Below, in pieces: positions 21,401 to 42,653 of a DNA stretch of 48,828 nucleotides. Source of the stretch: a virus. Taxonomy: Duplodnaviria; Heunggongvirae; Uroviricota; Caudoviricetes. The stretch is taken from IMG/VR virus record IMGVR_UViG_3300045988_154803; one strand, given 5' to 3'. Positions within the stretch are counted from its first letter, which is position 1. Every line of letters starts with the position of its first letter. Below the pieces are notes generated by a model, which saw only the letters and a program-made list of their open reading frames with translations, did not search any database and was not told the DNA's origin. A program made the position numbers and the translations under genes.

Positions 21401-21403
21401 GTT

Positions 21404-22493: not shown

Positions 22494-22495
22494 CG

Positions 22496-24814
22496 TTAAA
22501 TACTCCCCGCGTTATACCACGTCCCATTAATGCAATACTGAATTGGCCTTGCCTGTGTTGTATCAATTAATTCATCACGGTTTCCGTTAACTGAACCCGT
22601 AACGACATAACCTGACCTGTCAGACCAGCCGGGGCCATTCCATGTCTGAACAGATGACAGACCGCCAAGGCGAATACCTGTAATAAACCTTGAGTTACAT
22701 TCTGCCTGCGTATATGCACCAACATCTCCCGCAGAGGGTTTGCGGGTTGTGGTGTAAAACTCTGACCAGTCAGCTTCAAAGCCATAACCATCACGCGCTG
22801 AACGATAAAAGATTCCGCCATTTCTGTAATTCACGCGGAACTGTGCAGCAGGGCAGCTCCCCGTATTCATATTGAAGTGGAGGATTAATGTCGATGCGCC
22901 ACCAATATTTGCGTTATAGACCCCGCTATTCCAGTTCCAGCCAACAGCTTTATCATTTCCGACAGTGCTTCCTGTTTGCCCTAAAGCAAATGCAGGTTGT
23001 TGATTTTTCGTGTTGTAGTCTCGTCGCCAGCCAGGAGCGTAAGCATCACCATGATTAATATAAGTGAATTGAGCGTTAGTAATTCCTCCACCGCTGGACG
23101 TGCTCGGCGTGGTAACGCGTATGGTCATTGCGCCGCGAGTGCCAATAACTTCCACCACAGCACCTGCAAGACAAATATTTCCGCAACCTGTATCTGTAAT
23201 GACCTTATTATTTGCATAAGCCCATGAGCCTTTGCACATCCAGTAAGGATGGTTAAATGCTCCCTGACTCTCCAGCCACGAAATAAATTGCGCGGTTGTC
23301 CAGACCTGACTATCGCCACCAATATCCAGCCATGCGCTATATGCGCGGCAGGCCCCAATATTTTTGGTGAAGGTATCTTTTCCCGGAATATCTGCGCCGT
23401 TCTGGTTTTTCTGTAATGCGCCAGAAGCCTGATTTACCGTTTCCTGTAAACCGAGGTATTCGATAACGGCAGCAACGGTCGATTTCGCAAGAATATCCCG
23501 CCCGACTTTTGTCAGGGTTGCCAGGCTGGCGACATCATTCCCCGTAAAATACGGAAACTTGTCTGCCGCAGTAGCAAGCCCGGCCAGCGCCGTCAGGGTG
23601 GCATCTTTCGGTTGCTTACCCGCAAGCGCGTTAGTCATGGTGGTCGCAAAATTCGGGTCGTTTCCCAGCGCCGCCGCTAACTCGTTCAGCGTATTCAGTG
23701 CGTCAGGTGACGAGTCCACGAGGGCAGCGATCGCAGCCATAACGAAAGCCGTGCTTGCGATTTGGGTATTATTCGTTCCCTGTCGCGCAGTTGGCGTTGT
23801 TGGCGTTCCGGTCAACGCAGGACTGTTTAAGGGCGCTTTCTTGTTCGTTTCATCCATTACCGCCTTGACCGCTTTCGATGTCGCGGCCAGTGTTTCAGAC
23901 GTGCTGTTGGTGGAACTACTGAGCTGAGTTATTCCCCTTACAGTCAGTGAAGCTACAGGCACATTTGTTATCTGCTCCCACGAATGCGTGTGATTGGACG
24001 GAGCCTTTCCGGCCGCAAGATCATACGCTGCCTTAACAGCCTTTGGTGTTGCTGCTAGCGTTTCAGACGTGCTGTTGGTGGCACTACTGAGCTGAACAAT
24101 CCCTTTTCGCGCTGTGGTAGCGTCCTGTGCGGTGTATTTGCCATTAGCCAGGTCATATGCTGCCTTAACAGCCTTAGGCGTCGCAGCAAGCGTTTCAGAC
24201 GAGCTATTGGTGGCGCTGCTAAGTTGAACAAAGCCTTTTGAGGTTAAAGTTGCATCAGGATGATTACGTGATTGTTCATGTTTCACAATGGCTTGCTTAA
24301 GCCGCTTTGCTGAAACAGCAAGGGAATCATCTGTACCGTCATCAATTTCTTGTTCATTGGCAAATCTTGCAACCCCAACAACAGTTTCGGTTGCGGGAGG
24401 ATTAATAAACTCAATATCACCAAATGTAATATTTTTAGTATCAAGAGTCTTGATTGCTATGTCACTTGATATTAAAGCAATAGTAGATGATGCTTTATTT
24501 ATTATTGCTTGTTCTTGCGAGTATACAGCAAACAACGTTCCCTTATTTGTATACAATCCTATTGTATGGACAACATACTCATCTTTACTATCATCCTTCG
24601 CCGTTACATGAATTGTATCAGGGGAAACAACTTTGCCACCTATTGTGGTAAGTCGTTTTATTTCGTTTGTTATATTTGTTTGTGAAGTTGACGTGACATA
24701 ATATCTACTACCTAAACCAACAGAAACAATCTCAACTTTATTTGTTCCTGTTTTGTTGGCATTAACCAGCTCCTGACGCCCGGCGTCAGTCATCGTAAAT
24801 AATAATTTACTCAC
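22496..24814 (-). CDS. Tail fibre protein (constant N-terminal ~450 aa outside, variable C-terminus inside invertible segment)
   Basis: 772 aa; repeated SSATNS(T/S)SETLAATPKAVKAAYD collar-like motifs; crossover site lies inside the ORF. Confidence 0.85.
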   Translation of the reverse strand: MSKLLFTMTDAGRQELVNANKTGTNKVEIVSVGLGSRYYVTSTSQTNITNEIKRLTTIGGKVVSPDTIHVTAKDDSKDEYVVHTIGLYTNKGTLFAVYSQEQAIINKASSTIALISSDIAIKTLDTKNITFGDIEFINPPATETVVGVARFANEQEIDDGTDDSLAVSAKRLKQAIVKHEQSRNHPDATLTSKGFVQLSSATNSSSETLAATPKAVKAAYDLANGKYTAQDATTARKGIVQLSSATNSTSETLAATPKAVKAAYDLAAGKAPSNHTHSWEQITNVPVASLTVRGITQLSSSTNSTSETLAATSKAVKAVMDETNKKAPLNSPALTGTPTTPTARQGTNNTQIASTAFVMAAIAALVDSSPDALNTLNELAAALGNDPNFATTMTNALAGKQPKDATLTALAGLATAADKFPYFTGNDVASLATLTKVGRDILAKSTVAAVIEYLGLQETVNQASGALQKNQNGADIPGKDTFTKNIGACRAYSAWLDIGGDSQVWTTAQFISWLESQGAFNHPYWMCKGSWAYANNKVITDTGCGNICLAGAVVEVIGTRGAMTIRVTTPSTSSGGGITNAQFTYINHGDAYAPGWRRDYNTKNQQPAFALGQTGSTVGNDKAVGWNWNSGVYNANIGGASTLILHFNMNTGSCPAAQFRVNYRNGGIFYRSARDGYGFEADWSEFYTTTRKPSAGDVGAYTQAECNSRFITGIRLGGLSSVQTWNGPGWSDRSGYVVTGSVNGNRDELIDTTQARPIQYCINGTWYNAGSI
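23441..23466. repeat. Right inversion crossover site (gix/hix-like)
   Basis: TTCCTGTAAACCGAGGTATTCGATAA, close to Mu gixL as recalled. Confidence 0.85.
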
Positions 24815-24844
24815 GCTTAATTCCTTGAATTAACAAATTGCGAA

Positions 24845-25426
24845 TTAGCACTCGCCAATTAATCGTACATAAGACACAGGCTGACAAGCACCAACAATAC
24901 CGACACCACCAGAAACATTGGCTGCTTGCGAAAATGTAAATAATGTTCTTGCCGACTTTGCGCTCTTGATACTTCTTAACGTATCTTCCAACATCTCTTT
25001 CGAAGGAACGGCACCATCAAAAGAGTTAATCGAAGCAACAATTGAGGCTGTATATGGTTCGCCAGGTGGTGATGTTTCAAACCATTCTGTTATGTTTACC
25101 TCTCCACCCAAGCTATTTACTACATCTTCAACCGCTGCCCTTGTACCCTTTATTCGCTTTGTTCGTATTATTGATTTAAAAACAGAACGCTTTAACGATA
25201 CAGGCCAACTATCCCTCCATGTATCAGCATTCCATTGCCAAGCTAAATGATCGAGAACAACTGAGTCCAGGTTATCAACAACGCTATATATTTCTGTCTT
25301 ATATATTAAATTGTTAATTGCTTGTAGTTCATCATCAATAGCTTTCGACATAGCTATCACGTTGGGATCTCTAGCTAAGTTAGGAGGTAAAACATCCAAC
25401 AAGCTAACATTAAAGATATCAGCCAT
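24845..25426 (-). CDS. Baseplate protein, P2 gpI-like
   Basis: Operon position between gpJ-like and tail fibre; 193 aa. Confidence 0.65.
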   Translation of the reverse strand: MADIFNVSLLDVLPPNLARDPNVIAMSKAIDDELQAINNLIYKTEIYSVVDNLDSVVLDHLAWQWNADTWRDSWPVSLKRSVFKSIIRTKRIKGTRAAVEDVVNSLGGEVNITEWFETSPPGEPYTASIVASINSFDGAVPSKEMLEDTLRSIKSAKSARTLFTFSQAANVSGGVGIVGACQPVSYVRLIGEC

Positions 25427-26543
25427 CCTCTAACCCCGCATACTGGCAATTTATATTTCTCTCTCTGGCGACCTGCGTCTCTCCAACTACAGTAAATACA
25501 GGACTTGATATTTCTAATCTTTTAGCCCCGGCATTTTTTAAACGTTGAATAATTTCATCTGGATTTATATATCTTCCCATAACCGAACGTTGCCATTGTT
25601 TATACTCATCAAGAGCTTTCTCAACCTCACTTTGAATTAACGTTGTTCTGTTTTTGTCCGATGAGTTAATCCAGTATTTAATTATTATATCGTATTCAAT
25701 GCTCTCTGGTTTCTTAACAAGAACTTTATCTGTGAATGGTCGAATATTAGTTGCAGAGAGAACGCTATTTATCTGCTCTAATAGTTCATCAGAAGGTATA
25801 TCCCCGTTCTCTAACAAAGAACGGATTTCTACAGTTCCGGGCGATGGTGTATATACATTCACATCTTTTATATTCTGATTGGCTGTTCTTGTCCAATATT
25901 TATAAGAATCCTCCGGCCCTGCTGTAGACAGTTTTTCCGGCGACAGTTTTATTCTTTCAGCATAATTATCATCTGACTCTGTATCAGCACCAGAATTAGA
26001 TGTTGTTAGATTCCTTACGCTGGAAACATACGGCAACGGAGTCACCAACTCGTTTATTTGCCCAGGTAAAAATCCATTCCCCGATAAGCCAGGTATAACA
26101 GCATATCCTGAGACTGTACCAACTGTTTTCCCAGCTGGTATTTCCAACAAAACATCTGTTTGGAAAATAACACTATTTCCAGTTGAAATTTGAGTGCCAG
26201 CAGGTATTGTATATATCCCCGATAATTTTGTTGACAGATTAAACTCAAATGTAGTCAAGGCAGATTGAGCTTCCAGCCTAGGCGTATCCGTCAGATAGCC
26301 TATATGGTCGAGATATTCACCCCCACCATATGTAAGAAGGTTTTGTTTTGCAGAAAAATCGATAGCTTTTCTTTGCTGTATAATAATCTCACACAATGAC
26401 AAGATGAATAATCTACGTGGATCAGCAGGTGCTAATGTTTCACCTGTTATACTCTCAAAAGCCCTGATTGAACGAGTTGTTATATCAGTCGGGTTAGAAT
26501 CTGCGAAAGTAATATCTGGCAAACCACCGCGCGGCAACGTCAT
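25419..26543 (-). CDS. Baseplate protein, P2 gpJ-like
   Basis: 374 aa; position and size. Confidence 0.7.
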   Translation of the reverse strand: MTLPRGGLPDITFADSNPTDITTRSIRAFESITGETLAPADPRRLFILSLCEIIIQQRKAIDFSAKQNLLTYGGGEYLDHIGYLTDTPRLEAQSALTTFEFNLSTKLSGIYTIPAGTQISTGNSVIFQTDVLLEIPAGKTVGTVSGYAVIPGLSGNGFLPGQINELVTPLPYVSSVRNLTTSNSGADTESDDNYAERIKLSPEKLSTAGPEDSYKYWTRTANQNIKDVNVYTPSPGTVEIRSLLENGDIPSDELLEQINSVLSATNIRPFTDKVLVKKPESIEYDIIIKYWINSSDKNRTTLIQSEVEKALDEYKQWQRSVMGRYINPDEIIQRLKNAGAKRLEISSPVFTVVGETQVARERNINCQYAGLEDG

Positions 26544-26860
26544 TCTCTAACTCCTATCACAAGTTTTGGCCTAATAAAACCATCAGAAACGTCCGTTCTT
26601 TCAAAAGTAACAGAATGGATAATCGCTCTAGGCTCAAACTCACTAATTTTTTGAATTATTTCTCGTGTTGCTGTAGCAATAAAAATTGGGCTAGGGCTAT
26701 CAACAAGACTTGAATTAACTCCTAATTTTCTGGCATATGGTACAGTGCCAATCTGAGTATTAATAATAGTAGAGACATTTTGCAAAACTTCTTCTACAAC
26801 TGTTTTGGGCGACCAATCAATCGAGTAAGAAGGTGATGATATGGTAAACGTATTATTCAT
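26540..26860 (-). CDS. Baseplate protein, gpW/gp25-like
   Basis: 106 aa; position upstream of gpJ-like. Confidence 0.6.
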   Translation of the reverse strand: MNNTFTISSPSYSIDWSPKTVVEEVLQNVSTIINTQIGTVPYARKLGVNSSLVDSPSPIFIATATREIIQKISEFEPRAIIHSVTFERTDVSDGFIRPKLVIGVRE

Positions 26861-27324
26861 AATAATTTACCTAACGCACTTCTAGTTTTTGACTCTATAT
26901 TGCCAGCAATATCAACTAATGCTTCTTTCAGAGAGGTCTGTCCGACTTCCTGTAATTTAATGCCGACGATAATCACTCGTGGATTCCCAGTTGGACCGAA
27001 ATAAGTCCATGATTCCTCTATATCTGTAATTATAAAATTACCAAAATACTGAATACCAATTACAACAGGATTTACTTCCTGAATTGATTGCATTGTCCTA
27101 AGTAATGAAAGCGCAGCCAATGGAACAATGCCAAGTGTTGTATCCAACCGCATATTAAAACTAACTTCATCCAGATCTGGACCTATATCCTCCAGAACAG
27201 GTTTAAGCCCAATAACATCATGGCGCGCTACACGACGCTTTGACGTCCTTTTAAAATTGTTGAACGTATTCACCACTATTGATGAGGCAACAAAAGGCAT
27301 TGTACCAAGCATACCCACAATCAT
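26857..27324 (-). CDS. Putative baseplate/tail protein
   Basis: 155-aa ORF with coupled start/stop in baseplate operon. Confidence 0.35.
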   Translation of the reverse strand: MIVGMLGTMPFVASSIVVNTFNNFKRTSKRRVARHDVIGLKPVLEDIGPDLDEVSFNMRLDTTLGIVPLAALSLLRTMQSIQEVNPVVIGIQYFGNFIITDIEESWTYFGPTGNPRVIIVGIKLQEVGQTSLKEALVDIAGNIESKTRSALGKLL

Positions 27325-27941
27325 GCCTGAGCCTCCGTTGTCGGAGCGTATTCCCCCTGAGCCGTGTGATGGTGGCCTTTAGATTTAATCCCATCAACAT
27401 CTATATCACCACCAACAACCTTAACATCCCCAGAAATTGTAGCTGCAACACCTCCAGCAGAAGATCCTTTCATTCCACCTTTGAAGGTTAGTAATCCTTC
27501 AACTGTAGCATTTCCGGTAATGATGGTTTCTGGAGCATCAATAGTTACGGTTCCTGTAGCCTTAACGGTTACATCTCCGACAGCATCAACAAGGAGTAAA
27601 TTAGATTCTCTGTCTACCTCAATACGAGTTCCGTTATTAAATCTAATGACGCGTTTATTAACAGTATTAGATGGCGGCTTCTGTGTTTCATCATAAAAAC
27701 TACCAAGAATAAAACCTTGTTGCGGCCCTGCGGGATGAAAGATACACAAAACTTGCTCACCAATATCTGGCATCCAGTAATCAGCATTCTTATCCGTATT
27801 TTTCACAATAACTGATAACTTTGCCGAAGTGACGTTATCCTGATCATCGAAAGTAACTCTTGCTGTAACATCACCATCATCAATATCAGAAACAACGCCA
27901 ACTCTTATAGTCTGACGTAATAATGTTTCTAAATCATTCAT
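27321..27941 (-). CDS. Baseplate spike/hub protein, gpV-like
   Basis: 206 aa; Gly-rich beta-helix-like C-terminus with HHH. Confidence 0.65.
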   Translation of the reverse strand: MNDLETLLRQTIRVGVVSDIDDGDVTARVTFDDQDNVTSAKLSVIVKNTDKNADYWMPDIGEQVLCIFHPAGPQQGFILGSFYDETQKPPSNTVNKRVIRFNNGTRIEVDRESNLLLVDAVGDVTVKATGTVTIDAPETIITGNATVEGLLTFKGGMKGSSAGGVAATISGDVKVVGGDIDVDGIKSKGHHHTAQGEYAPTTEAQA

Positions 27942-27943
27942 AA

Positions 27944-28945
27944 TTAATACCCATTAATTACTCTTCGGACATCAATCGAGGTGGTATAACCACTAGCCCC
28001 AATTGAATGCACAGCTTTCGATATAAGATATTTTCCAGAAAATGAACCGAATCCGTCCAGATTTATAGTTACACCAGCTACCAATCTGGTGTCTCCAACC
28101 AATACTAAAGATCCTGTATTTTGATATCTATTTTTAAGCCGCAAAGCAGCCTTTGCCTTACGTTTTGCTTCATCTAAATTAGCTACCAGTTTTCTTATCT
28201 TAAGATTCGACCCTTCTTCTACGGATGGATCTACCCAAGTATACGAAAGCGACTTTCTTTTTTTAGGTACGCGATATTTGCACGTGCAACTTTTATACAA
28301 ATCTGTAGATTGTGTGCTAAAGCTATATCTGATTATCTCATCAATACCTAACGTAAGCGTAGCGATAGGATCTTTTTGCTCAAACATCTCTTGAGCAAAT
28401 ATTATTAATTGGCTATCAGTGACCTTTAACGACAACCCTTCATCCTGGCATAGTCGATGGAGAAATTTTAAATCGCTTTCCTCCATTTGATCTTCACGCG
28501 CATAATATGGATTACTATCACCATCAATAAGAAACAACAGTTCAAGGTTAGCTAATTTAGCTATAGAGGTTGCTATATCTTTAAGAGTTGTTTTTTCCCA
28601 TGCATTACTTTTTAAATCACGTCTAATGCCTGATGAAACAGGAACAGAAACAGCAGTCACCTCAACAACAGAAGGTGGTCCAGAGCAAGTTATGCCATCT
28701 ACCTGGAATTTCCCGCACTCAAGGACGATTTGATTTATAGGCTTAAAGCTCAAATCAATAAAATCACCCTTTTTAGGTGTCCAGTCTCCAGACCATTTCC
28801 CATCATCATTTTTTAATATAATAGAAATATCATCGACCTGACCATCTTCATTATCTGTATAAGACATTGACAAAACATCAGGTGACATATGAGCGGTAAT
28901 ATTTACATTCTGATATATAACATCAAAAAGCGTTTTACGTAACAC
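27944..28945 (-). CDS. Tail protein gpD-like (late control D / baseplate hub)
   Basis: 333 aa; position between gpX-like and spike. Confidence 0.7.
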   Translation of the reverse strand: MLRKTLFDVIYQNVNITAHMSPDVLSMSYTDNEDGQVDDISIILKNDDGKWSGDWTPKKGDFIDLSFKPINQIVLECGKFQVDGITCSGPPSVVEVTAVSVPVSSGIRRDLKSNAWEKTTLKDIATSIAKLANLELLFLIDGDSNPYYAREDQMEESDLKFLHRLCQDEGLSLKVTDSQLIIFAQEMFEQKDPIATLTLGIDEIIRYSFSTQSTDLYKSCTCKYRVPKKRKSLSYTWVDPSVEEGSNLKIRKLVANLDEAKRKAKAALRLKNRYQNTGSLVLVGDTRLVAGVTINLDGFGSFSGKYLISKAVHSIGASGYTTSIDVRRVINGY

Positions 28946-29153
28946 TATTGCGTCTCCACGGAGGCAAATTGTTTACTGATATTGGCATAACCGGAGCATC
29001 AGGAACTTTAAGAATAATTCCCGCAGAAAAAAGCACCGTAAAGCGGTGCTCAGTATTAGCATCAATAAGAAGATAAGACAGGTACTCATTACCATACAAC
29101 TTTAACGCGATACTATCCCATGAGTCCCCTTGAACCGTTCTATAATCATCCAA
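28935..29153 (-). CDS. Tail protein X-like (LysM-like)
   Basis: 72 aa; TVQGDSWDSIALKLYG LysM-like motif. Confidence 0.6.
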   Translation of the reverse strand: MDDYRTVQGDSWDSIALKLYGNEYLSYLLIDANTEHRFTVLFSAGIILKVPDAPVMPISVNNLPPWRRNSVT

Positions 29154-31938
29154 AACTTAATCTCCGTTGTTGGAACATATGAGCACTCAATTTCTTCTCA
29201 AAATCAGAATATCCCGCATCTAATGCTCTTTTAGCTGCCGCCTCAGTTTCCTTTGGTGAACCAGCCGGAAGATTGATTACAGGTGAATAGGTTATTCCAC
29301 CAGTCACAGCATTAACGTTCTGGCGAGGTCCAGAAGTCCCGGCGGCAGATATCCCGTGAGGTGATAAATTTGATTGCCCGAACTTGGTTGCTATTGCATT
29401 CTGTAAGCTGTTATTCCTGCTAACGCCTGATGCCAGAGTAGTCATTATTGCACCACCTGACTTTGTTAGCTGTGAGAATGGACCTTTTTTCGCGTCAGAG
29501 AACGGTAAATACTCACGTACAGAAGAAAAAACGCCTTTCACTTCATTAATTAAAGCATTTGCTTTTGATTTTATCCCAGTGATTAACGTCTCAATTATTT
29601 TTGCGCCTGACTCACTCCAGTTTATTCCAGACAAATAAGCCGTTACAGATTGGAATGCTCTTATAAAGAGTCCAACTGGTGAAAAACGCATAAAAACAGA
29701 TACCAGTGTATCTATGATTTTCTTTCCTGTTTCGCTCCAGTTAATACCAGAAAGGTAATTTGTTGTAAGTTTAAATGCTTTAATTAAGAACGGAAGCGGA
29801 GACATCCATTTAAAAGCACTAATTAATGTACTGTAAATTCTTACTCCTGCCGAACTCCAGTTTATGTTGGAAAGATAATCCCATGCTTTACCAAACATAG
29901 ATATAATCCATCCATTGAGATCAAAGTTTAAGATAAAGTTTTTTATAGCTTCAAACGATTTAACTGTATATTCCTTAACAGAAGGCCAAACTCTGACAGC
30001 ATAATCTCTGATCTTATCCCAGTTCTGATAGAGCAATATTCCTGCGGCAACCAGCGCAGATATAGCCATCTGAATCCACCCGAAGGGTGTTAGCTTTGTC
30101 GCTACAGATAAAGCCAGCATAGCTACCCTACACGCTATAACCACACTTTTCATGGTTAGAAACGCACCTGCCGCCATCACAATCTGAGACACAAAATTGG
30201 GGTTGTTAGCTACAAATTCACTAATTTTTGTAATCAGCGGAACCAAAACACTAAGCGCGGCATTCAAAGCAGGTTGCAAGGCCTGACCAAAACTTAATGA
30301 TGCATTGCTAGCCTGAATACGTAATTGTTTCAATCGCTCCGCATTGTCTTTCGTTATGTTGGCAAAATCGCGGTCAATAACAGCACTTCCAGCACCAAGA
30401 GATGTTGCTTTGATTCTCTGGTATTCCTTCCAGTTTTGAATCATCGGACGAACAAAGTTCTGAACCTGCATATCGCCAAATAGCTCACCAAGTAACTTCT
30501 GATCTCCGTTCTTAGTCATTTTCATGACAGAATGCATTGCAGCTTCGAATGGATTCTTCCCTTTTTTCTGCGCTGTTGTGACAATTTTATATAAATCTAC
30601 ACCGAAATTTTTCTTTGCTTTTTTTAGTGTTTCAGGGGAAAGTATTTTCGCCAAAAAGTTGTTCATATTATTAGCAGCCTCATCCGAAGTTGCAGCACCT
30701 TTGCGAGCTATCTGCAAAGCTGCCCCCATCGTCGCGGCGGCTTCTTTACCTCCCATTTTTAATGCCTGGAACTGAGCACCAAGCACAGGAAGATTTTTGG
30801 CCATATCTTTAAATTCAAAGTTTCCCTCTTTCCCTGCCTGAACCAGAATCCCCATTGCAGACTTCATTTGAGATGGATCAATCTTCAATGAGTCACTTAA
30901 TGTAAATGATGCTTTCGAGACATCGAGGATATCAGAGCCAGTAGCTGTAGCTGTTCGCCCAATAGTTAGTAGATTCGCCTGAGCCTCTTTATAATCCTGC
31001 CCAGCAGCGACGAGAAAACCCTGAGCGGCCTGAATATCAGATGCAAACTGGTTGGTGGCCGTTCCGGTAACAAGCATCGCCTGCCCCATCGCCTGAACTT
31101 CTTCCGGCTTCATATCTGCCGTAAGACCAATCATTTTGTTTTCACGATTGAAATTTGCTGCATTGTTAGCAGCAGCAAATGCACCAGCCGCTACAGCACC
31201 AGTTTGTAATCCTGACCTTACAAGTTGACTCTTTGCCTCACCAAGATGCTCTCGCTTCAATTCACGCTGCCTTTCCAACGCGCGGTTTAACTCCTCCTGA
31301 GCACGTTTTACTGCAAGAACATTTTTCCGTGCTTCAGCCAACGCATTTTTATAGCTGTTAATTTTATCAATACGTTGTTTTTCTAATGCCCGGTTAAGTT
31401 CCTCCTGCTGTTTTTTCACTTGCTGAACATTTGCTCTGGCTAAAGCCAAAGCCGTTCTGTAGCGGTTAACCTGCTCAACGCTACGGACCTGAGCCTCACG
31501 ATTACGATCAATGCTGGCTTTAAGCTCTTTCTCTCTTGAGGCCAAAGCTCTGGCAGATGTATCAGCTCCCTGATAGGCAGACTTTAAAGCGGCCAGTTCT
31601 TCACGCTGAGAACGTAGTGATGCTCGTAAATTCGATGAATGTGTTTTTGCCTTCTCAAAGTCACGAAGCATCGCTCTGGTTGGATTGGCCGTGTTTTTTA
31701 TTTGCTTCTGTAACTCTTCAACGCGAGCGGCAGCTTTATGATATTCGAGGGCAGTCTGTCCAACCTTTACTTTTACAGATTGTAGCTTTTGAATTTCCCC
31801 ATGTTCTTTCGTTAATCCAGCAAGCTCGGCATTTAATTTAGCAACAGCCTGATTAGCTGTAGTAAAACTTTTGGGGAGAGAGGCGGCAACTTTGCCGCCA
31901 ATTTCAAAAGCCAGCTTAAAGTTCTTATTGCTGGCCAT
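29146..31938 (-). CDS. Tail tape measure protein
   Basis: 930 aa; N-terminal coiled-coil repeats, central hydrophobic segment, size and position after chaperone. Confidence 0.9.
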   Translation of the reverse strand: MASNKNFKLAFEIGGKVAASLPKSFTTANQAVAKLNAELAGLTKEHGEIQKLQSVKVKVGQTALEYHKAAARVEELQKQIKNTANPTRAMLRDFEKAKTHSSNLRASLRSQREELAALKSAYQGADTSARALASREKELKASIDRNREAQVRSVEQVNRYRTALALARANVQQVKKQQEELNRALEKQRIDKINSYKNALAEARKNVLAVKRAQEELNRALERQRELKREHLGEAKSQLVRSGLQTGAVAAGAFAAANNAANFNRENKMIGLTADMKPEEVQAMGQAMLVTGTATNQFASDIQAAQGFLVAAGQDYKEAQANLLTIGRTATATGSDILDVSKASFTLSDSLKIDPSQMKSAMGILVQAGKEGNFEFKDMAKNLPVLGAQFQALKMGGKEAAATMGAALQIARKGAATSDEAANNMNNFLAKILSPETLKKAKKNFGVDLYKIVTTAQKKGKNPFEAAMHSVMKMTKNGDQKLLGELFGDMQVQNFVRPMIQNWKEYQRIKATSLGAGSAVIDRDFANITKDNAERLKQLRIQASNASLSFGQALQPALNAALSVLVPLITKISEFVANNPNFVSQIVMAAGAFLTMKSVVIACRVAMLALSVATKLTPFGWIQMAISALVAAGILLYQNWDKIRDYAVRVWPSVKEYTVKSFEAIKNFILNFDLNGWIISMFGKAWDYLSNINWSSAGVRIYSTLISAFKWMSPLPFLIKAFKLTTNYLSGINWSETGKKIIDTLVSVFMRFSPVGLFIRAFQSVTAYLSGINWSESGAKIIETLITGIKSKANALINEVKGVFSSVREYLPFSDAKKGPFSQLTKSGGAIMTTLASGVSRNNSLQNAIATKFGQSNLSPHGISAAGTSGPRQNVNAVTGGITYSPVINLPAGSPKETEAAAKRALDAGYSDFEKKLSAHMFQQRRLSFG

Positions 31939-31943
31939 TAGTA

Positions 31944-32374: not shown

Positions 32375-32383
32375 TTTGTCACC

Positions 32384-32905: not shown

Positions 32906-32921
32906 AGCAACCTCCTATTAT

Positions 32922-35161: not shown

Positions 35162-35502
35162 ATCGGCATTCCTCTGTTAGTATTAACAGTGAGAGTTATT
35201 TCCAATACACCAACATTATCTGATACTTCATCAATAATATAATTTTTACCGTTGATTTTCATTGACTGGTCTTTGACAGGGAGAACAGGAAAATCTTTTC
35301 TTGAAACAAATAATATTATTTGCCCCTGATTTATTCCCTCTGCAAACTCAGCATATGAGCGTTTATTCCGCTCATGAATAAGGTCTGTATCAATAACGGC
35401 AAGGATATCCTTGCCGTCTATGTTATATGTATCGGCAAACTCTTTTTCATTGAGGAATATTGCAGAAATATCTTGCGCTATAACCTCTTTGAAGGAGTTC
35501 AT
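35158..35502 (-). CDS. Putative head-tail joining protein
   Basis: 114-aa ORF; position. Confidence 0.35.
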   Translation of the reverse strand: MNSFKEVIAQDISAIFLNEKEFADTYNIDGKDILAVIDTDLIHERNKRSYAEFAEGINQGQIILFVSRKDFPVLPVKDQSMKINGKNYIIDEVSDNVGVLEITLTVNTNRGMPI

Positions 35503-35894
35503 TACTTCTTATTACCTTTTTTTTGCGTTGATTTTTTCGCATTACTGGTATCAGAAGTAGCTACAGATTCAGATGAATCATCAGCAACCGTTTCCTCATT
35601 GCCGCCATCATCCTCAAACTCAACCTCGAATACACAGCTACCCGCCTCCGTTCGCGTAATCAACCCCGCGTCCACAGCATCATTAACAGCAGATGCGTAT
35701 CCATGCTCAAAAGCTAACTTAGCAGCATCATAGCCCCCGGCCGATGCCAAATCACCATCCTCTTCGGTGGCAATAGCATGTCCTGACGCAATCAGTTCGG
35801 CAATTCTGGAGTTATCCATTAGCCCATTAAGCAAACGGCCCGCTTTTAGCGAGCCGTGGCTTATCGTATCAATGTTTTTAATCAGTCTGGCCAT
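35502..35894 (-). CDS. Hypothetical head-associated protein (acidic, K-rich tail)
   Basis: 130-aa ORF immediately after major capsid gene. Confidence 0.35.
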   Translation of the reverse strand: MARLIKNIDTISHGSLKAGRLLNGLMDNSRIAELIASGHAIATEEDGDLASAGGYDAAKLAFEHGYASAVNDAVDAGLITRTEAGSCVFEVEFEDDGGNEETVADDSSESVATSDTSNAKKSTQKKGNKK

Positions 35895-36938
35895 TTAAAC
35901 CACCTTAGCCACCAGATAGGCATCAGCCACACCAGGATTAGGCAGTGGAGATGACTTCATGGCAACATAACGGCCAGCCGGCTTACGAGTTACCCAGGTG
36001 TCTGGAACTCGTGGTGACTCAACAATCGTTAGAGTCTTTTCGGCGTCATCTACAAGCTCTACAGCACCATACAGCATCGTTCCTCGACCAGGAGAGCCAA
36101 AGAGGATCTTATCTTCCGGTACTAATGGTTCTGGTTTTCCTGTTTTATCATTGCGAATAAGTTCGTCGTAACCATAAAAATCGACACCTTCAAGATTGCC
36201 ATAATGAGTTACGCCTTCTTCTAACTCCTTAGGCTCAATATACCCAAGCTCTTTTCGGCGATTATCAAGATATTTAGTTACTGCTTCATTTTTAACGAAA
36301 GCATCAACAACTTTTGCGCCCATTACGGCAACACGAGGTGTAAAACCTGAAGTTAGTGATACCCGACGTTTCCAGTTGCGAACATTGACCAACGGATCTG
36401 ATTTTGCAGCACTCCATAAATCATCACCTGTCAGTTCAAGATATGGTTTATCTCCTTCCTCTTCAGGCCAAAAATAAACTGTGTCATCCACACCTTCACC
36501 AACAATATCAACCTGCCCCGTAAACAAGACTTGTGCACACATCCATTCTTCACGGCGGTTAACCATTTCATCAAGCTCAAGCAAATCTTTACCTAATTGC
36601 TCGGCGGCTCGTTCTGCTGGCGATTTTGCGTTGTAAATATTCTCACCCGGAAGCCTGTTTAAAAGCAGCTCTGCTGTTGTTACCAAATCAGGTGCAACAA
36701 GTGGTGGCTCCAGAGTTCTCGTTACAAAGCCGCGTCGCTCAACGGTTTTTGAGCCAAAACCTTTACCAACAAACGGAGCCATAGTACGGCCACCGCGAAC
36801 AAAATCCAGATCAACTTTCTTTGTATTAAAGGTCTGAACACCAGGAAAAAAGGTACGAAGAAGAAAACGACGAGCCTTGAAATTCTGAATAACAGGCTCA
36901 AGCATTGTACGTCGTTCAAAAATATCAATATTCGGCAT
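35895..36938 (-). CDS. Major capsid protein, lambda gpE-like
   Basis: 347 aa; N-terminal FLLRTFFP resembles lambda E LFLRLFF; position after decoration protein. Confidence 0.75.
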   Translation of the reverse strand: MPNIDIFERRTMLEPVIQNFKARRFLLRTFFPGVQTFNTKKVDLDFVRGGRTMAPFVGKGFGSKTVERRGFVTRTLEPPLVAPDLVTTAELLLNRLPGENIYNAKSPAERAAEQLGKDLLELDEMVNRREEWMCAQVLFTGQVDIVGEGVDDTVYFWPEEEGDKPYLELTGDDLWSAAKSDPLVNVRNWKRRVSLTSGFTPRVAVMGAKVVDAFVKNEAVTKYLDNRRKELGYIEPKELEEGVTHYGNLEGVDFYGYDELIRNDKTGKPEPLVPEDKILFGSPGRGTMLYGAVELVDDAEKTLTIVESPRVPDTWVTRKPAGRYVAMKSSPLPNPGVADAYLVAKVV

Positions 36939-36958
36939 AAAAATACGACCTCTTTATA

Positions 36959-37342
36959 TTATGCAGATGGATTTTGTTGTGCGGTGTTAAGGAATATCCC
37001 AACCTTCCGGCAAGCCAGATATACATCGGCAATCTTTGCTGATTCAGGAAGGATAACCGCATGTGCATTGAACATTCCGGTCAGCCATGCTGTTCCAACT
37101 TGCGCTGAATCAGTCGCATCAATACTGTGTTGAGCGATACAATACGGTTCTTTTGCCACCCCCTCACCAGAGAGATTTATTGGTGCTACAGTGACAACAT
37201 TTGTTGTCTGATCAATACTGACAAAAGCAAGCAACTCACCTCGATTTACTTTACCGCTGGCAAGTTTAATACTTGTTGTAATTGCTGGCATACCACCAGA
37301 AATAATCAGATTATCTGGTTCAAATGAAAAAGACTCTCGCAT
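36959..37342 (-). CDS. Head decoration protein, lambda gpD-like
   Basis: 127 aa; position between protease and capsid. Confidence 0.55.
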   Translation of the reverse strand: MRESFSFEPDNLIISGGMPAITTSIKLASGKVNRGELLAFVSIDQTTNVVTVAPINLSGEGVAKEPYCIAQHSIDATDSAQVGTAWLTGMFNAHAVILPESAKIADVYLACRKVGIFLNTAQQNPSA

Positions 37343-37351
37343 AAACTCACC

Positions 37352-38440
37352 TTAATTTTTATCGCGGTTTTTAAATACTGACCCAATAACATTTTTTACT
37401 ACTTCAGCTTGTTTATCTCCGTTGTTTTCTGGTTGATTAACATCAACTGAATCATTCACCTCATTTGCGTCTTCTTGCCGTTGATTAAGAAAGTTTTTGT
37501 TACGCGCTCGCTCTGCATTCATAATTTCCAAAGCAAGTTCAGCCGCAGAAACTCCCGTTTTGAATTTTGCATTCTTAACCAGGTCGTCATGACCTGGAAT
37601 CACGCTATTCTCGATTGTTTCAATGCGCTCGCGTTCTGATTTAACGCCCTCGTCTTTACCAGCATTAAAAACCTGATTGTATAATTCTGGATGTTTATTT
37701 TTTAATTCATCAAGAGTCACAACATCGTCCTCATTTTGTTCATTTAATTCAGTAGATAATTCATTTTTATTTTGTGGCAACTTTGCGAGCGAATCAGGTA
37801 ATTTTGAAAACCTTGATGCTTCAAAAGTTATTCCATTGAGCGAAAGCATCCCTTCCTTTATAGAAGCGGATAAGCGCATTGGTTTTTCAACTTCGTCAGC
37901 AAATCCAAGCTCTACAGCCTCTTCTGCATTTAGCCATGTTTCCTGATCCATTAGTTCAATTAATTTATCCTCAGAAAGCCCTGTTTTCTCCTTATATGCA
38001 GATAAAATACTATCTCGTATCTTATCCATCATCTCAGCAATATCACGTAGTTCATCCGCATCACCAGCAGCAAATGTCCACGGATTATGGATCATCATCA
38101 TAGCATTAGATGGGATAACAACTTTATCACCTGCCATTGCAATAATGGTTGCAGCCGATGCAGCAATACCATCAATATAAACAGTAATATTAGCCTTATG
38201 ACGTTTTAATGAAGAAAGAATAGCTTGAGCAGTAAAAACAGAACCACCATAACTATTAATTTTTACGTTGATAGCATTTGATGATATATCCTTTAATTTA
38301 TTAACTATGTCAGAAGAAGAAACCTCATCAAATTCGCCAATATATCCGTAGATTAAAAGTTCAGCCGGAGAGTCATCTTCACCCGTGCTATTTTTTATTT
38401 CCCACCAATTAGGCATCATCTGTCTCCATATTTTGTTCAT
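37352..38440 (-). CDS. Head maturation protease/scaffold (S49/ClpP-like, lambda gpC-like)
   Basis: INSYGGSVFTAQAILSSLKRHKANITVYIDGIAASAATIIAMAGDKVV protease core; acidic C-terminal half. Confidence 0.85.
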   Translation of the reverse strand: MNKIWRQMMPNWWEIKNSTGEDDSPAELLIYGYIGEFDEVSSSDIVNKLKDISSNAINVKINSYGGSVFTAQAILSSLKRHKANITVYIDGIAASAATIIAMAGDKVVIPSNAMMMIHNPWTFAAGDADELRDIAEMMDKIRDSILSAYKEKTGLSEDKLIELMDQETWLNAEEAVELGFADEVEKPMRLSASIKEGMLSLNGITFEASRFSKLPDSLAKLPQNKNELSTELNEQNEDDVVTLDELKNKHPELYNQVFNAGKDEGVKSERERIETIENSVIPGHDDLVKNAKFKTGVSAAELALEIMNAERARNKNFLNQRQEDANEVNDSVDVNQPENNGDKQAEVVKNVIGSVFKNRDKN

Positions 38441-39983
38441 TTACCTCAGAAACAGGAGGCGTAATCAGCCCCAACTCACGGCGAGCATTCTCTTCTCTGC
38501 CACAAATTTGTGCGGTTTCTTCCCAGTTAAGACCTGACATTTCAGCCGCTTCCTTTTCACGGGTAGAGAATGTTTCCTCAACACGCAGTTTTGCAGCTTT
38601 GACTTCTTTAAGGGGATCTAATTGGCCTTGTGATGGGCCATACCATTGAGCGCCACTCCATGCAGCGCGATATTCAGGCCCATAAAAAAAACCAGGGGCA
38701 ATAACACGACCTTTAGCAACGGCTTCGGCCAACCATTCCTCATAGATCGGTTGGCAAAATGACTGAACCATCCAGTCACGTCGCATACGGAACATTTTCC
38801 AGGCTTCAAGTAATGCGACCCTGCTTGCGCTATAACTTGCTGTAAAATGCTTTACCAAGAGTTCGTAAGGGAGTTCTAAAGCAGCCCCAATTTGACGGCA
38901 TATGGCGACAACAAAACCATCAAATGCCGTATTTGGTCGCCCGGGATTTGCTGTATCTATCGACTCACCTTCACCCAAACTTACTATGGAGCCATTCCCC
39001 ATTTCTTGGGTGTTATCATCATGGTTATCGATCTGCTCGTACTGAGGGATACCCGATTCACCGACTGGTCCATCAGGAGCGTCTGTTTTAATAAAGACAG
39101 TAAACATCCCTGACACAACCGCAGCAACCAATTCAGCATCGGTGTATCGTCCTAACTGCTTCAATGCTTCAATAACAGGAGCAAGGACAGGAACGCCACG
39201 ACGTTGCCCAGGCCTTTCAAAATCCTGCATGACATGCAGAATATTTCTTCTTCCTGTTTTACTCCCATATGCGGGAATACGTTCCCACTTGCGGGTTACA
39301 AAACCAGAAGTCCCGGCTGGGTGATGTTTTGCAACCCAGTACGCCACAGGCTCGCTAAATTCACCAACCTCTACGCCACCGTAAAGATTTGGTATAAAAC
39401 GATCCTCTGGATTGCAAACACGATCACCTTCAATTAAATAGACGCACAAATCATATATAACACCCTTACGCTTAATAACTGGTAGCGCAGCAAATATATC
39501 GCCAGATGTTAACGCAGATATTTGGACCAATGATTGCAATTGTCCAAAAGTACACATTCTTGATGCATCACAATTTGGAGAATCAGCCCATAATCTAAAC
39601 TCACGCTCAACATGCTTTTCCCATGCTCGCGCTTCTTCCTGCGTCATCCCCAAGAAATCGGCATCAATGTTCGCATTTAGTTTTAAACCGGAACCAACAA
39701 CGTTTGTCCTGATAGTTTTTATTGCGCCAACCGATAGCGGGTTTCCCATGAAGAGATCACGAGAACGCTCACGCAATTTATCTATATTTTTAACAATATC
39801 ATCATCAGGAGAACCAGCTTTACTAAACCAACCCCTTAATGATTTTTTATGAGTGCTTGCACCATGACGTGAATATCCAAGGTTATTAATACCTTCAAGT
39901 GCTTCTAACCGTTTTCTTGCCAAAGCTCGATTTAATGCCCTCTGAGGTGAAAACGGCGCAATAACTCGATCAAGAATATTCAT
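38409..39983 (-). CDS. Portal protein (lambda gpB-like)
   Basis: 524 aa; between gpW-like and protease. Confidence 0.8.
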   Translation of the reverse strand: MNILDRVIAPFSPQRALNRALARKRLEALEGINNLGYSRHGASTHKKSLRGWFSKAGSPDDDIVKNIDKLRERSRDLFMGNPLSVGAIKTIRTNVVGSGLKLNANIDADFLGMTQEEARAWEKHVEREFRLWADSPNCDASRMCTFGQLQSLVQISALTSGDIFAALPVIKRKGVIYDLCVYLIEGDRVCNPEDRFIPNLYGGVEVGEFSEPVAYWVAKHHPAGTSGFVTRKWERIPAYGSKTGRRNILHVMQDFERPGQRRGVPVLAPVIEALKQLGRYTDAELVAAVVSGMFTVFIKTDAPDGPVGESGIPQYEQIDNHDDNTQEMGNGSIVSLGEGESIDTANPGRPNTAFDGFVVAICRQIGAALELPYELLVKHFTASYSASRVALLEAWKMFRMRRDWMVQSFCQPIYEEWLAEAVAKGRVIAPGFFYGPEYRAAWSGAQWYGPSQGQLDPLKEVKAAKLRVEETFSTREKEAAEMSGLNWEETAQICGREENARRELGLITPPVSEVNEQNMETDDA

Positions 39984-40219
39984 AAATCTCTTATCACCAC
40001 TCGTTTAATTCGTGGGCCTCGGCGTATACCTGCTGATAATCTTTCTACTTCATTACGCCAGTAATCCATCTCTTTTCTGACTTCTGATAAATCCGCACGA
40101 GTTAACTGCCGCGTACCAAATTTATATGACTGACCGCCAATAGCAATAGCGCGATATGCTTCCCGCCAGACAGATAACATCTCTCTGGCTTCAGTCAGAG
40201 AAAATGCTTCATTGTTCAT
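39980..40219 (-). CDS. Head-tail joining protein, gpW-like
   Basis: 79 aa; immediately after terminase large subunit. Confidence 0.5.
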   Translation of the reverse strand: MNNEAFSLTEAREMLSVWREAYRAIAIGGQSYKFGTRQLTRADLSEVRKEMDYWRNEVERLSAGIRRGPRIKRVVIRDL

Positions 40220-40230
40220 TTATATTTCCT

Positions 40231-42087
40231 CTATATGGTTACGCCTTTACTTATAACTCTACGGCGTCTTCTACGTATACCTGACGAGTTCTGCACATAC
40301 ACATTACCTCGCATTTCCTGTTCGGCAAGCCAGTTAAAATTAGGGTTCAGAATTTCCATCGCGGCAGTTGCATAGTTACGGCAATCAAGAGGCTCGTTAC
40401 GCTCGTAGACTTTCACCCACTTTTCTTTTGTCTGCCCATTTTTATATTCAAATATTTTCTTCTCTGATAATAATCCTTTAAAGTATTCGGTATCATATCC
40501 TCTGTCAGAATCTAATGGGAAATGCATATAACCAGGACCAGGATCATGTAGTTTAATTCTTGCCATGATGGTCCCTTTACCATCATCAACCCCCAAATTA
40601 AACAACATAGCACCCACACGGTTATTATTACTTGGCTTTCCTATAAATGGTAAACCTACCCCACCACGCCCCCTGATAGAGTATATTCGCCTTGATTCTC
40701 TCGGCTTAGTAAAGCGATATACCTCTGTCGTAAAATGCCCACCAGAGTCAATACAAACGGAAGAAATCTGTAATTTTCGACCGTCACGGAATGACCAGCT
40801 ACGGAGTAAGTATTCATCAAGTTGTTTCCAGACAACATCTTGTGCGGGATCACCTGGGAATATTTTATATTCTATCCCCCATGACTCCTTACCTTTTCCC
40901 CAACCGACCAATTCACAAACTAAATACGTGTCCTGTACGTCAACACCAGCACTTAACAATAAAACATCATCTGGTAAAAACTCTTCAAACCTTATTCTGC
41001 GTTGCAACAAGTATTCAGGATCGATATCGTCTTTAGCATCCTCTTTCCATGGCTCACCCAGCTTAAGGTTAATAAACTCCATTAATCCATTTTTATCGCG
41101 GTTTCTGGTTGCTTCCGTAAATTCTTCAACCAGCTCTGACAATGCAACCCACGGGGAGTAAAGACTGTTAATATGAAAACCAACAATACCTTTAACTCCA
41201 GTATGTTCAGCTATCCATACCCCCTTCGCCAACCAATCAACGTCTGGTTTACCAGATCCGCGCATAATCCCGCCGCACTCACAGCACTCATATCTGGCCG
41301 TTTCCGGTAACGCCTCACCTGAATCGCTCTTATCCCATCTGACTTGCGACCATTTCATCACCTGCATGGTGCCACAACATGGGCAAGGAACATGGTAGTA
41401 ACGCTGATCGGAGAGCTTAAACCACTTGTGGATTTTGCTCGTTTCCTCCAAAACAGGAGTAGAAACAAAAACTTTCTTACGATTATGAAAGTTGGTAGTA
41501 CGCTGAATACCTAGTTTTAGTGGGTCGCCCTCCTGCGTCACACCGTAACGATCAATCTCATCAGCTAACAGTATTCGAATTGGCCTGGATGCAAGACCTG
41601 CTGGGGAATTAGCACCAACAAGTGCTATATATCCACCAGCGTAATGCTTCATACGTATAGTCGTGCTGGACTTTTTGGCTGCACCGCGCCCCTCTTTCCC
41701 TTCATGCAGCTTGTGTTTCAAACCAGGGGAATATTTGAACGTCGGATCAATACGCTCTTTTGAAAAAGCCTCAGCCGCCTCTACCGTTGGATAAATCATC
41801 AACTGAGGAGATGGCTCCTGATCTGCAAAGTAACCCATAACATTTAGCTGTAATTCGGATTTACCAATTTGCGAGCTACATTGCATCACTACTGTTTCTG
41901 TATCAGCGTCACCAATAACATCCATTGGTTCACGCAAATATGGCACTCGGCTTGTACGCCACGGCCCTGGCTCTGGAGACGTTCCCGGCGCTACATGACG
42001 ATACTTATCAGCCCATTCGGAAACAGTTAGCCGTGATTTAGGGCGAAGCGCACGGAAAAAAGCGGTGCTCCATACTGTTTCGCCCAT
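40231..42087 (-). CDS. Terminase large subunit (lambda gpA-like)
   Basis: 618 aa; N-terminal ...TVSEWADKYRHV resembles gpA ...TAVEWADANYYL; ATPase/nuclease size class. Confidence 0.9.
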   Translation of the reverse strand: MGETVWSTAFFRALRPKSRLTVSEWADKYRHVAPGTSPEPGPWRTSRVPYLREPMDVIGDADTETVVMQCSSQIGKSELQLNVMGYFADQEPSPQLMIYPTVEAAEAFSKERIDPTFKYSPGLKHKLHEGKEGRGAAKKSSTTIRMKHYAGGYIALVGANSPAGLASRPIRILLADEIDRYGVTQEGDPLKLGIQRTTNFHNRKKVFVSTPVLEETSKIHKWFKLSDQRYYHVPCPCCGTMQVMKWSQVRWDKSDSGEALPETARYECCECGGIMRGSGKPDVDWLAKGVWIAEHTGVKGIVGFHINSLYSPWVALSELVEEFTEATRNRDKNGLMEFINLKLGEPWKEDAKDDIDPEYLLQRRIRFEEFLPDDVLLLSAGVDVQDTYLVCELVGWGKGKESWGIEYKIFPGDPAQDVVWKQLDEYLLRSWSFRDGRKLQISSVCIDSGGHFTTEVYRFTKPRESRRIYSIRGRGGVGLPFIGKPSNNNRVGAMLFNLGVDDGKGTIMARIKLHDPGPGYMHFPLDSDRGYDTEYFKGLLSEKKIFEYKNGQTKEKWVKVYERNEPLDCRNYATAAMEILNPNFNWLAEQEMRGNVYVQNSSGIRRRRRRVISKGVTI

Positions 42088-42092
42088 GAGGT

Positions 42093-42653
42093 TTATTCTT
42101 CCTGCTTAATAAATCGGGATTCCTGGAGCGCCTGAAGCGCAAAATTAATCTCGTCTTCAATAATGCGTTCGATCTCCCTGGCTGTTTTGCCTTCACAACG
42201 GGGAGCTGCTCTTGGAGCAATACTAAATAAGCGGCTACGCAATTCATTAGCTGCCAGAAATGCATCATCCCTGACCGCATCTTTAGCGATGAGAGAGCCT
42301 TCCTTTTCTTCAAATTCAAGGCGTTTCAGCTTTGCCTGATAAATTTTTTCTGCGGTCTTAGCCTTGTTGAATTGCACCGCAACACCGGAAGTACCACCAG
42401 CTAATCCGGCATCATCAGCGGGTAACTCTGGTTGTTCCGAAGATATCCCATGCCCTCTTTTTCCATTTTCAGCAGATACCTCACGACCAACCTGTCGGCT
42501 CGCTTCATAAGCCGCACTGGCTTTATCAAAATCCAGCTTGCCGCTTTTCAGCACTGGAATGCGACCGGAACGACAGAGCTTCGTAACCATTGCCGGAGAA
42601 ATACCTTTCCGGCGAGCAAACTCTGACTTACTGACGATGGCCATTACTTGCAA
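42093..42653 (-). CDS. Terminase small subunit (N-terminal HTH)
   Basis: 186 aa; MAIVSKSEFARRKGISPAMVTKLCRSGRI HTH; upstream of large subunit. Confidence 0.6.
   Translation of the reverse strand: MQVMAIVSKSEFARRKGISPAMVTKLCRSGRIPVLKSGKLDFDKASAAYEASRQVGREVSAENGKRGHGISSEQPELPADDAGLAGGTSGVAVQFNKAKTAEKIYQAKLKRLEFEEKEGSLIAKDAVRDDAFLAANELRSRLFSIAPRAAPRCEGKTAREIERIIEDEINFALQALQESRFIKQEE

Follow-up and report, generated by a model that had tools for sequence, protein, structure and literature searches.

A lambda-type head and a P2-type contractile tail as a probably old combination in a circular 48.7-kb phage-plasmid

The virion genes of the Vibrio phages X29, phi 2, Rostov 7 and XM1 (proposed 'Weiviridae') and of Lily (genus Lilyvirus) run from the small terminase subunit gene TerS to the baseplate gene gpI in one order, and the same order, at 28–66% identity, is found in the viral DNA analyzed here, the 48,828-nucleotide (nt) stretch of IMG/VR record IMGVR_UViG_3300045988_154803 (hereafter the window; all coordinates refer to this whole stretch). 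XM1, which according to its authors is related to X29, was shown by electron microscopy to have a contractile tail of 131 nm. [quoted passage not shown] According to the same preprint, members of the family have neither a MOB nor a replicon type, are distinct from the ten recognised phage-plasmid types, carry phage genes over ∼75% of the element and can carry bla-TEM; their transfer occurred via cell-free phage preparations and was abolished by knockout of a tail gene.

An earlier note, made from the letters of the window alone, had described positions 22496–42653 as a mosaic virion module in which lambda-like packaging and head genes are joined to a P2/Mu-like contractile tail. The family labels behind this description were borne out, as searches against structure sequences matched the capsid to lambda gpE (6e-17), the portal to gpB (1e-40) and the sheath to the R-pyocin sheath PA0622 (5e-15). 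The note had itself named P2-type head genes or siphovirus-type tail genes as findings that would overturn it, and profile searches found neither. The reading of the module as a recent mosaic was not supported by comparison with its relatives. We consider it very probable that the block is the late virion operon of a temperate myovirus living as a circular 48.7-kb plasmid, and that its layout of head plus contractile tail has been inherited vertically and is standard in a large lineage with hosts among Pseudomonadota, Bacillota, Fusobacteria and other bacteria.

Head and tail genes among relatives

The block was compared with Vibrio phage X29, Paenibacillus phage Lily, Pararheinheimera phage KLER1-1, Faecalibacterium phage Lelie, Fusobacterium phage JD-Fnp2 and a Salmonella contig (L094) found through a homologue of s161, a small gene described below, as well as with lambda, P2 and Mu. 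All six relatives have the identical gene order between TerS and gpI, including a gpU-like gene that separates V and W. Amino-acid (aa) identities for the large terminase subunit TerL, portal, capsid, sheath, tube, D and J were 88, 86, 84, 85, 90, 85 and 79% in the Salmonella contig, 63, 66, 47, 54, 58, 42 and 44% in X29, and 41, 55, 40, 44, 46, 37 and 43% in Lily. The corresponding ranges for head versus tail were 84–88 vs 79–90% (Salmonella), 47–66 vs 42–58% (X29) and 40–55 vs 37–46% (Lily). Identities to lambda were obtained for TerL (28%) and portal (27%) only, those to P2 (tube, X, D, V, J, and I) were 25–31%, and Mu matched outside the fibre cassette in gpJ only (29%, tblastn).

A scan with a portal alignment, restricted to one genome per species, yielded 325 loci, and the best 80 portal matches were examined. 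Among these, sheath and tube homologues were found in 65 of the 66 loci reaching at least 7 kb beyond the portal gene. TerL, portal, capsid, sheath, and tube were collinear on one strand in every locus holding all five (66/66), with a spacing of 1.4–3.5 kb between capsid and sheath, and the hosts of the loci included Bacillota, Sutterella, Succinatimonas and Oxalobacter. Two loci showed that the head can be found with another tail. In a metagenome-assembled genome of Bacillota (L042), the capsid was 42% identical and no sheath or tube homologue was found, and in Nitratiruptor phage NrS-5 (L013), the capsid was 33% identical, sheath and tube homologues were again absent, and the tail was of the siphovirus type with a 6.5-kb tape measure gene. 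Both are genuine cases of this head type with a different tail. Modules are thus exchanged within the supergroup, but in the neighbourhood of the E. coli element no exchange can be seen.

The collinearity of the block, the similar divergence of its head and tail and its retention in nearly all loci suggest that the lambda-type head and P2-type contractile tail form an old and stable combination rather than a fresh hybrid, albeit one that is not absolutely fixed. Any fusion of a lambda head with a P2 tail would have happened deep in the past. A literature search for this pairing of a lambda-like head with a P2-like tail found no paper. The layout appears to be normal for a widespread, largely unnamed myovirus lineage, in which 325 species-level loci encode a related portal; the pairing is not evidence of a recent hybrid and should not be flagged as mosaicism in genome scans.

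The earlier note had located the join within four small ORFs (open reading frames) at 34385–35894. The same region is present in the relatives and leaves no gap, and its genes are best interpreted as neck components and not as a recombination scar, because s114 resembles gpFII, s161 has a terminator fold, and the genes overlap or abut without intergenic space. The s114 gene (35158–35502, −) encodes a putative lambda gpFII-like head–tail attachment protein (Phage_attach PF05354, 0.045; phrog_2551; phrog_82 'head closure Hc1'), and its X29 homologue, 42% identical, matched the same Pfam family at 5.6e-5. The product of s161 (34676–35161, −) was assigned as a tail terminator through a fold search, which returned the gpU fold; profile searches with the s161 and s114 alignments against PDB sequences gave no match. 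The s96 gene (34385–34675, −; phrog_4089), just upstream of the sheath gene, encodes a small conserved protein, possibly a neck or tail-completion protein, and X29 (33%), KLER1-1 (26%) and the Salmonella contig (74%) have a homologue in the corresponding place. The remaining gene, s130 (35502–35894, −), occupies the gpFI position and encodes a lineage-specific protein with ∼90 ordered N-terminal residues followed by a disordered tail that is acidic and then basic.

In the wider lineage, lambda-like synteny extends over W, B, protease, D, E, FII, and Z, up to the terminator. A lambda gpZ-like gene (Minor_tail_Z, 9.6e-15 in X29) lies between the gpFII-like and terminator genes of distant relatives, for instance at 9168–9734 in L005, 7245–7796 in L006 and 9087–9659 in L010, and was found in 63 of 66 loci. 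Neither the window nor the Salmonella contig has this gene; tblastn searches of the window with gpZ-like proteins from X29, Lily, KLER1-1 and JD-Fnp2, lambda Z, P2 R, S, L and U, and Mu G and gp35–38 gave no credible match. Conversely, s130 was seen in Enterobacterales only and in none of the 66 genome loci. The small post-capsid ORFs of distant relatives look similar to s130 by eye, and they were rejected as its homologues by hhalign (probability 0.1%). Why the enterobacterial branch should have lost gpZ and gained s130 is the one detail that the comparison leaves unexplained. It is an unlikely but conceivable outcome that this branch, to which the Salmonella contig and the E. coli phage-plasmids belong, lost the gpZ-like gene and gained s130 next to the capsid gene, and that s130 took over a neck, tail-completion or packaging-accessory role. 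If so, the neck would assemble differently in this branch.

The element as a circular phage-plasmid

The first 51 bases of the window are an Illumina Nextera i5 adapter (AGATCTACAC-CTATTAAG-TCGTCGGCAGCGTCAGATGTGTATAAGAGACAG), an assembly artefact, and bases 52–109 recur exactly at 48771–48828. This 58-nt terminal overlap shows the contig to be a circle of 48,719 unique bases. Genes of a plasmid backbone were identified, namely, an IncFII-family RepA (18733–19713; IncFII_repA, 4e-44), a ParA-type ATPase (10949–11617) and a HigB/Gp49-type toxin (16923–17276) with its helix-turn-helix (HTH) partner (16624–16923). Three Yersinia phages, vB_YpM_39, vB_YpM_41 and vB_YpM_44 (OR545053-5), for which Yersinia pestis EV76-CN is the stated host, were ∼99% identical over most of the length of the window (98.9% for OR545053). 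The virion module of Escherichia phages vB_EcoM-613R2 and 473R2 was 98.4% identical, and plasmid p48 of E. coli strain 1428 (NZ_CP023368) aligned at 96–99.9% identity across almost the whole window. The circularity, the RepA, ParA and toxin–antitoxin genes, and the near-identity to both phages and plasmids identify the window as a complete circular phage-plasmid of 48.7 kb.

The distribution of the element in E. coli was surveyed with a probe of 7.6 kb that reaches from tube to portal. It matched circular plasmids in 72 of the 5,426 complete genomes of the species, and 82 of the 83 matching places lay on plasmids of ∼48 kb. The probe matched 60 plasmids in PLSDB, all of them typed non-mobilizable. 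The Yersinia and Escherichia phages and the p48-type plasmids of ∼48 kb share 98–100% nt identity with the window over the virion module and most of the genome, and elements of the vB_YpM_39 and p48 type have the same gene order and the same backbone of RepA, ParA and toxin–antitoxin genes. The stretches that do not align with p48 are 20828–21355, 22956–23445, 3204–5202 and 46758–47336, the first two of which fall within the invertible fibre segment and the last two within the early region. The first two fit a remark in the preprint that the p-p47 family has variable loci in its phage region.

The element probably belongs to the p-p47 family, with which it agrees, on a comparison by description only, in size, RepA replication, host, share of phage genes and the lack of a MOB or replicon type; the window is without bla-TEM and Tn3. 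Another candidate group, that of pSLy3, was ruled out as pSLy3 belongs to the SSU5 supergroup of ∼100 kb. Literature searches on the phage names and plasmid accessions retrieved incidental mentions only. The element and its architecture are already known, in that GenBank holds isolated phages and dozens of plasmids, and the family has apparently been described in a preprint.

Two other explanations of the block were weighed against a vertically inherited late operon. The lambda names of the head families and P2 names of the tail families would be expected had a lambdoid phage recently recombined with a P2/Mu-like phage by a crossover inside the four small ORFs, and the rest of the genome is indeed visibly mosaic with Stx and lambdoid phages, while s130 has no homologue in distant relatives. 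Such an event is nevertheless highly improbable in view of the equal divergence of head and tail from the Salmonella, Vibrio and Paenibacillus relatives, the presence there of this very junction region, including homologues of s114, s161 and s96, and the retention of the combination in all but one of the testable loci. The identity to lambda or P2 proteins, only 25–31%, leaves no recent donor of either kind, and neither an intergenic gap nor a step in composition was found at the proposed join. The idea of a recent hybrid is thus largely refuted; the only parts of the genome with recent recombination are the tail fibre and the non-structural half.

It could also be argued that the block is a defective remnant, either a cryptic prophage carried on a plasmid or a relic resembling a tailocin, and that it no longer yields infectious virions. 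Most E. coli records label the element as just a plasmid, the gpZ-like tail-completion gene of most distant relatives is missing from the window, and, in the preprint, mitomycin C did not induce the element studied there and particles were not visible from a clean background (bioRxiv 10.64898/2026.08.19.745698). However, all structural ORFs are intact and tightly packed, the module is 98–100% conserved across ∼70 plasmids, and the three near-identical genomes with Y. pestis EV76-CN as stated host were deposited as phages. The p-p47 family, probably identical, moves via cell-free phage preparations, and knockout of a tail gene abolishes this transfer (bioRxiv 10.64898/2026.08.19.745698). A defective remnant is, on this balance, very hard to credit.

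Several observations weigh against the preferred reading, i.e., an old, vertically inherited late operon of a functional phage-plasmid. The heads of KLER1-1 are ∼35% and its tails ∼50% identical to those of the window, two loci (L021 and L047) combine a portal of 56–60% with a sheath of 27–29% identity, and the rank correlation between portal and sheath is only 0.29; this uneven divergence implies some swapping of modules between related phages. The examined loci, being the best 80 of 325 portal matches, are biased toward closer relatives. The myovirus morphology rests on the 'M' that the depositors gave their phages in the names and on the microscopy of XM1, and electron microscopy of the near-identical phages was not found. 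The identity with the p-p47 family, in turn, is based on agreement in size, host and RepA and on the missing MOB type, and not on sequence comparison.

Packaging, head, tail and fibre genes

All genes listed in the earlier note, from TerS to Tfa, were found as an unbroken series of ORFs on the minus strand, abutting or with overlaps of 1–4 nt, and their profile matches are far beyond chance. The list had left out a P2 GpU-family gene between V and W. The range of 22496–42653 does cover the head and tail block, but Tfa lies outside its start, and the module continues into an invertible segment. The features below are on the minus strand unless stated otherwise.

At the packaging end, TerS (42093–42653) matched phrog_57 (7e-42) and was 88% identical in the Salmonella contig and 42% in X29. 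TerL (40231–42087) is of the lambda gpA type (GpA_ATPase, 7e-76; GpA_nuclease, 1e-84) and 28% identical to lambda A by tblastn. A 79-aa protein in the gpW position (39980–40219; DUF6148, 9e-16) corresponds to phrog_118 'head-tail adaptor' (1e-28), and the portal (38409–39983) belongs to the lambda gpB family (Phage_portal_2, 1.5e-100), with the Chi portal (2.7e-49) and lambda gpB (1.1e-40) as matches among PDB sequences. The head maturation protease (37352–38440) is of the ClpP type, the CLP_protease match (4e-32) covering residues 41–185 of 362; by analogy with lambda C/Nu3, its C-terminal half is presumed to act as scaffold. The decoration protein (36959–37342) was assigned by phrog_49 (1e-24), the Pfam match HDPD (0.002) being below the cut-off. 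The major capsid protein (35895–36938) belongs to the lambda gpE family (Phage_cap_E, 1.5e-55; lambda capsid 7vi9, 6e-17). The lambda-like order claimed for these genes therefore stands, but two of the genes are not of the lambda families: the protease is ClpP/S14 and not S49 like lambda gpC (S49 match of 3e-5, below the cut-off), and the Pfam profile search gave no Nu1 match for TerS. Among the hallmarks of a lambda module, gpA-type TerL, gpB-family portal, gpE-family capsid and gpD-like decoration (the last by PHROG only) were thus present, and an S49 protease with nested Nu3 scaffold and a Nu1 small terminase were not found.

The contractile tail begins with the sheath (32922–34385), which matched phrog_23 (9e-96) and the R-pyocin sheath PA0622 and had no Pfam match; it is 28% identical to the BcepMu sheath over its full length and 28% to P2 FI over the C-terminal 30%. 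The tube (32384–32905) is of the P2 FII family (Phage_tube, 3.5e-44; 28% to P2 FII). The tail assembly chaperone pair (31944–32374; Phage_TAC_7, 1.5e-5; phrog_3140, 9e-43) is expressed through a −1 frameshift, as the earlier note had proposed, and the site is real. The zero-frame ORF ends in AAT TTT TTG CTC TCG TAG, so that the short form stops at 32093. The slip heptamer, a canonical T_TTT_TTG, lies at 32108–32102 (−), and the −1 frame is open to a stop at 31944, yielding a 143-aa fusion. The tape measure (29146–31938; PhageMin_Tail, 1e-20) has 930 aa, from which a tail length of ∼140 nm is predicted at ∼0.15 nm per residue.

The baseplate genes follow in the order of a gpX-like small protein (28935–29153; Phage_tail_X, 2e-4; 25% to P2 X), a hub of the P2 gpD family (27944–28945; Phage_GPD, 1.9e-9; 28% to P2 D), a central spike of the P2 gpV family (27321–27941; Phage_base_V, 3e-7, and Phage_spike, 4e-7) and the gpU-family baseplate or tail protein (26857–27324; Phage_P2_GpU, 2e-22), which is found in the same position in X29, Lily and KLER1-1. 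Three wedge proteins complete the series: one of the gpW/gp25 family (26540–26860), whose GPW_gp25 match (7e-5) was below the cut-off and whose syntenic homologues are 32–38% identical, one of the gpJ family (25419–26543; Baseplate_J, 3.6e-54) and one of the P2 gpI family (24845–25426; Tail_P2_I, 3.9e-27). No tblastn or Pfam match to the lambda tail genes (gpV tube, gpH and the gpM/L/K/I/J tip) was found in the window, whereas a sheath is present. A motif scan for promoters and terminators gave no excess over shuffled sequence.

The tail fibre (22496–24814; Phage_fiber_2 repeats, 3e-58) is a mosaic of three parts, namely, a family-specific N-terminus, a middle part resembling P2 H and lambda Stf (nt 23433–24280) and a Mu S'-like C-terminus inside the invertible segment. 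The middle, constant part is 81–92% identical to P2 H and 78–87% to lambda stf by blastn, and the protein is 98% identical to Mu S' over 42% of its length. The expressed Tfa (21960–22493; Caudo_TAP, 3e-36) is 97% identical in aa to Mu U', and the expressed cassette as a whole (21350–23469) has 94% nt identity to the Mu S'/U' region (Mu 32922–35040; blastn). A silent alternative cassette lies on the plus strand at 20564–21931, with a fibre C-terminus at 20564–21400 (Gp34_trimer, 5e-11) and a second Tfa at 21404–21931 (Caudo_TAP, 8e-37); the alignment at 20525–21931 is 95% identical in nt to the P2 H C-terminus and G (blastn). Both cassettes are enclosed in an invertible segment of ∼2.9 kb (20520–23460) with inverted repeats at 20520–20574 and 23406–23460, whose edges coincide with the boundaries of the Mu G segment in the blastn alignment. 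Next to it, a serine DNA invertase of the Gin/Cin/Hin type is encoded at 19895–20449 (Resolvase, 2.6e-44; HTH_7, 2.9e-13; 'hin' in OR545053). The virion module thus runs on past Tfa into an invertible segment of the Mu G / P1 C type with its invertase (19895–23460). The G+C content is 0.52 in the fibre tip vs ∼0.37–0.47 over the remaining head and tail block. Judging from these similarities, the recent mosaicism of the module appears to lie within the tail fibre, and this recent exchange of fibre and invertible segment with Mu, P2 and P1-type phages bears on the host range of a plasmid-like family.

In Faecalibacterium phage Lelie, the presumed tail-fibre genes are followed, ∼1.7 kb downstream, by a reverse transcriptase gene (L011, 24776–26005), which may belong to a diversity-generating retroelement acting on the receptor-binding protein. 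On the other side of the block, just upstream of TerS, the window encodes three minus-strand proteins with a ParB_N domain (42644–43234, 44528–45907 and 45901–46524), one of which carries a fused methyltransferase domain. The TerS-adjacent protein is kept in X29 (59%) and in the Salmonella contig (79%) and may be part of a packaging or DNA-modification module. An XRE repressor (9690–10346) and an ORF6N-Rha regulator (13226–14368) are also encoded, and the plasmid-maintenance and immunity genes are grouped at 9690–19713. The single tRNA gene (956–1031, −) has the anticodon CAT and was called tRNA-Met by ARAGORN; in RefSeq, a tRNA gene on the near-identical p48, probably the equivalent one, is annotated as tRNA-Ile, which would imply a lysidine-modified CAT anticodon.

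Proposed virion assembly and comparison with known systems

What the sequence itself demonstrates is the assignment of domains and folds, the site of the frameshift, the inverted repeats, the circular contig and the near-identity to deposited phages and plasmids. An assembly pathway can be proposed by homology with the biology of lambda, P2, R-pyocin and Mu. The gpA-type terminase would cut the DNA and package it into a head built from the lambda-family portal, the ClpP-type protease/scaffold and the gpE-type capsid and stabilised by the gpD-like decoration protein, and the gpW-position and gpFII-like proteins would close the portal at the neck. The tail would be built separately on a baseplate of gpD hub, gpV spike, gpX, gpU-like protein, gpW/gp25, gpJ, and gpI. 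The 930-aa tape measure, working with the frameshift-made chaperones, would set its length at ∼140 nm, the FII-type tube and then the sheath would be added, and the gpU-fold terminator s161 would cap it. Fibres would be folded by the Tfa chaperone, and the Gin-type invertase would flip the 2.9-kb segment between a Mu S'/U'-like and a P2 H/G-like fibre tip, thereby switching host range.

Compared with lambda (Nu1-A-W-B-C-D-E-FI-FII), the window has the same TerL, portal, capsid and, weakly, decoration families, the same gene order and a gpFII-like connector. It differs in its contractile tail, in an identity of only 27–28%, and in the protease and small terminase, which are S49 and Nu1 in lambda. 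The tail shares with P2 and the R-type pyocin the families FII, E/E' (with a −1 frameshift of the T_TTT_TTG type), X, D, V, U, W, J, I, H, and G. In P2, the tail genes are split between the V-G operon (V-W-J-I-H-G) and the FI-D operon (FI-FII-E-T-U-D), with X elsewhere, whereas in the window they are contiguous in the order FI-FII-E-T-X-D-V-U-W-J-I-H-G, with gpU after V and a sheath 100 aa longer than that of P2. The P2 head genes Q, P, O, N, M, and L had no match in the window.

The overall order from sheath through tube, chaperone, tape measure, hub, spike, wedge, fibre and Tfa to invertible segment and invertase is like that of Mu, and the fibre tip and Tfa cassette are 94% identical to those of Mu in nt and 97–98% in aa. 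The Mu head (gp29 portal and gpT capsid) and the transposase A/B gave no tblastn match, and only the J-like gp47 and the S/U cassette matched; the window encodes an IncFII-family RepA replication initiator instead. The P2/Mu tail layout proposed in the earlier note is therefore accurate as to P2-family proteins and Mu-like order, and at the protein level, the likeness to Mu outside the fibre cassette is limited to gpJ. An analogy with SfV-like phages was not supported: these combine an HK97-type head with a Mu-like tail, whereas the capsid of the window is of the Phage_cap_E and not the HK97 family, and no SfV record appeared among the listed megablast matches.

The phages of the X29/Lily group have integrase genes, no annotated plasmid-replication genes, and a gpZ-like gene that the window does not have; they are without the s130 gene and the invertible fibre segment, both of which are present in the window. 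In common, the window and this group have the adaptor in the gpW position, the ClpP protease, the decoration protein, the gpFII-like protein, the terminator, the ORF preceding the sheath gene and the gpU-like gene between V and W.

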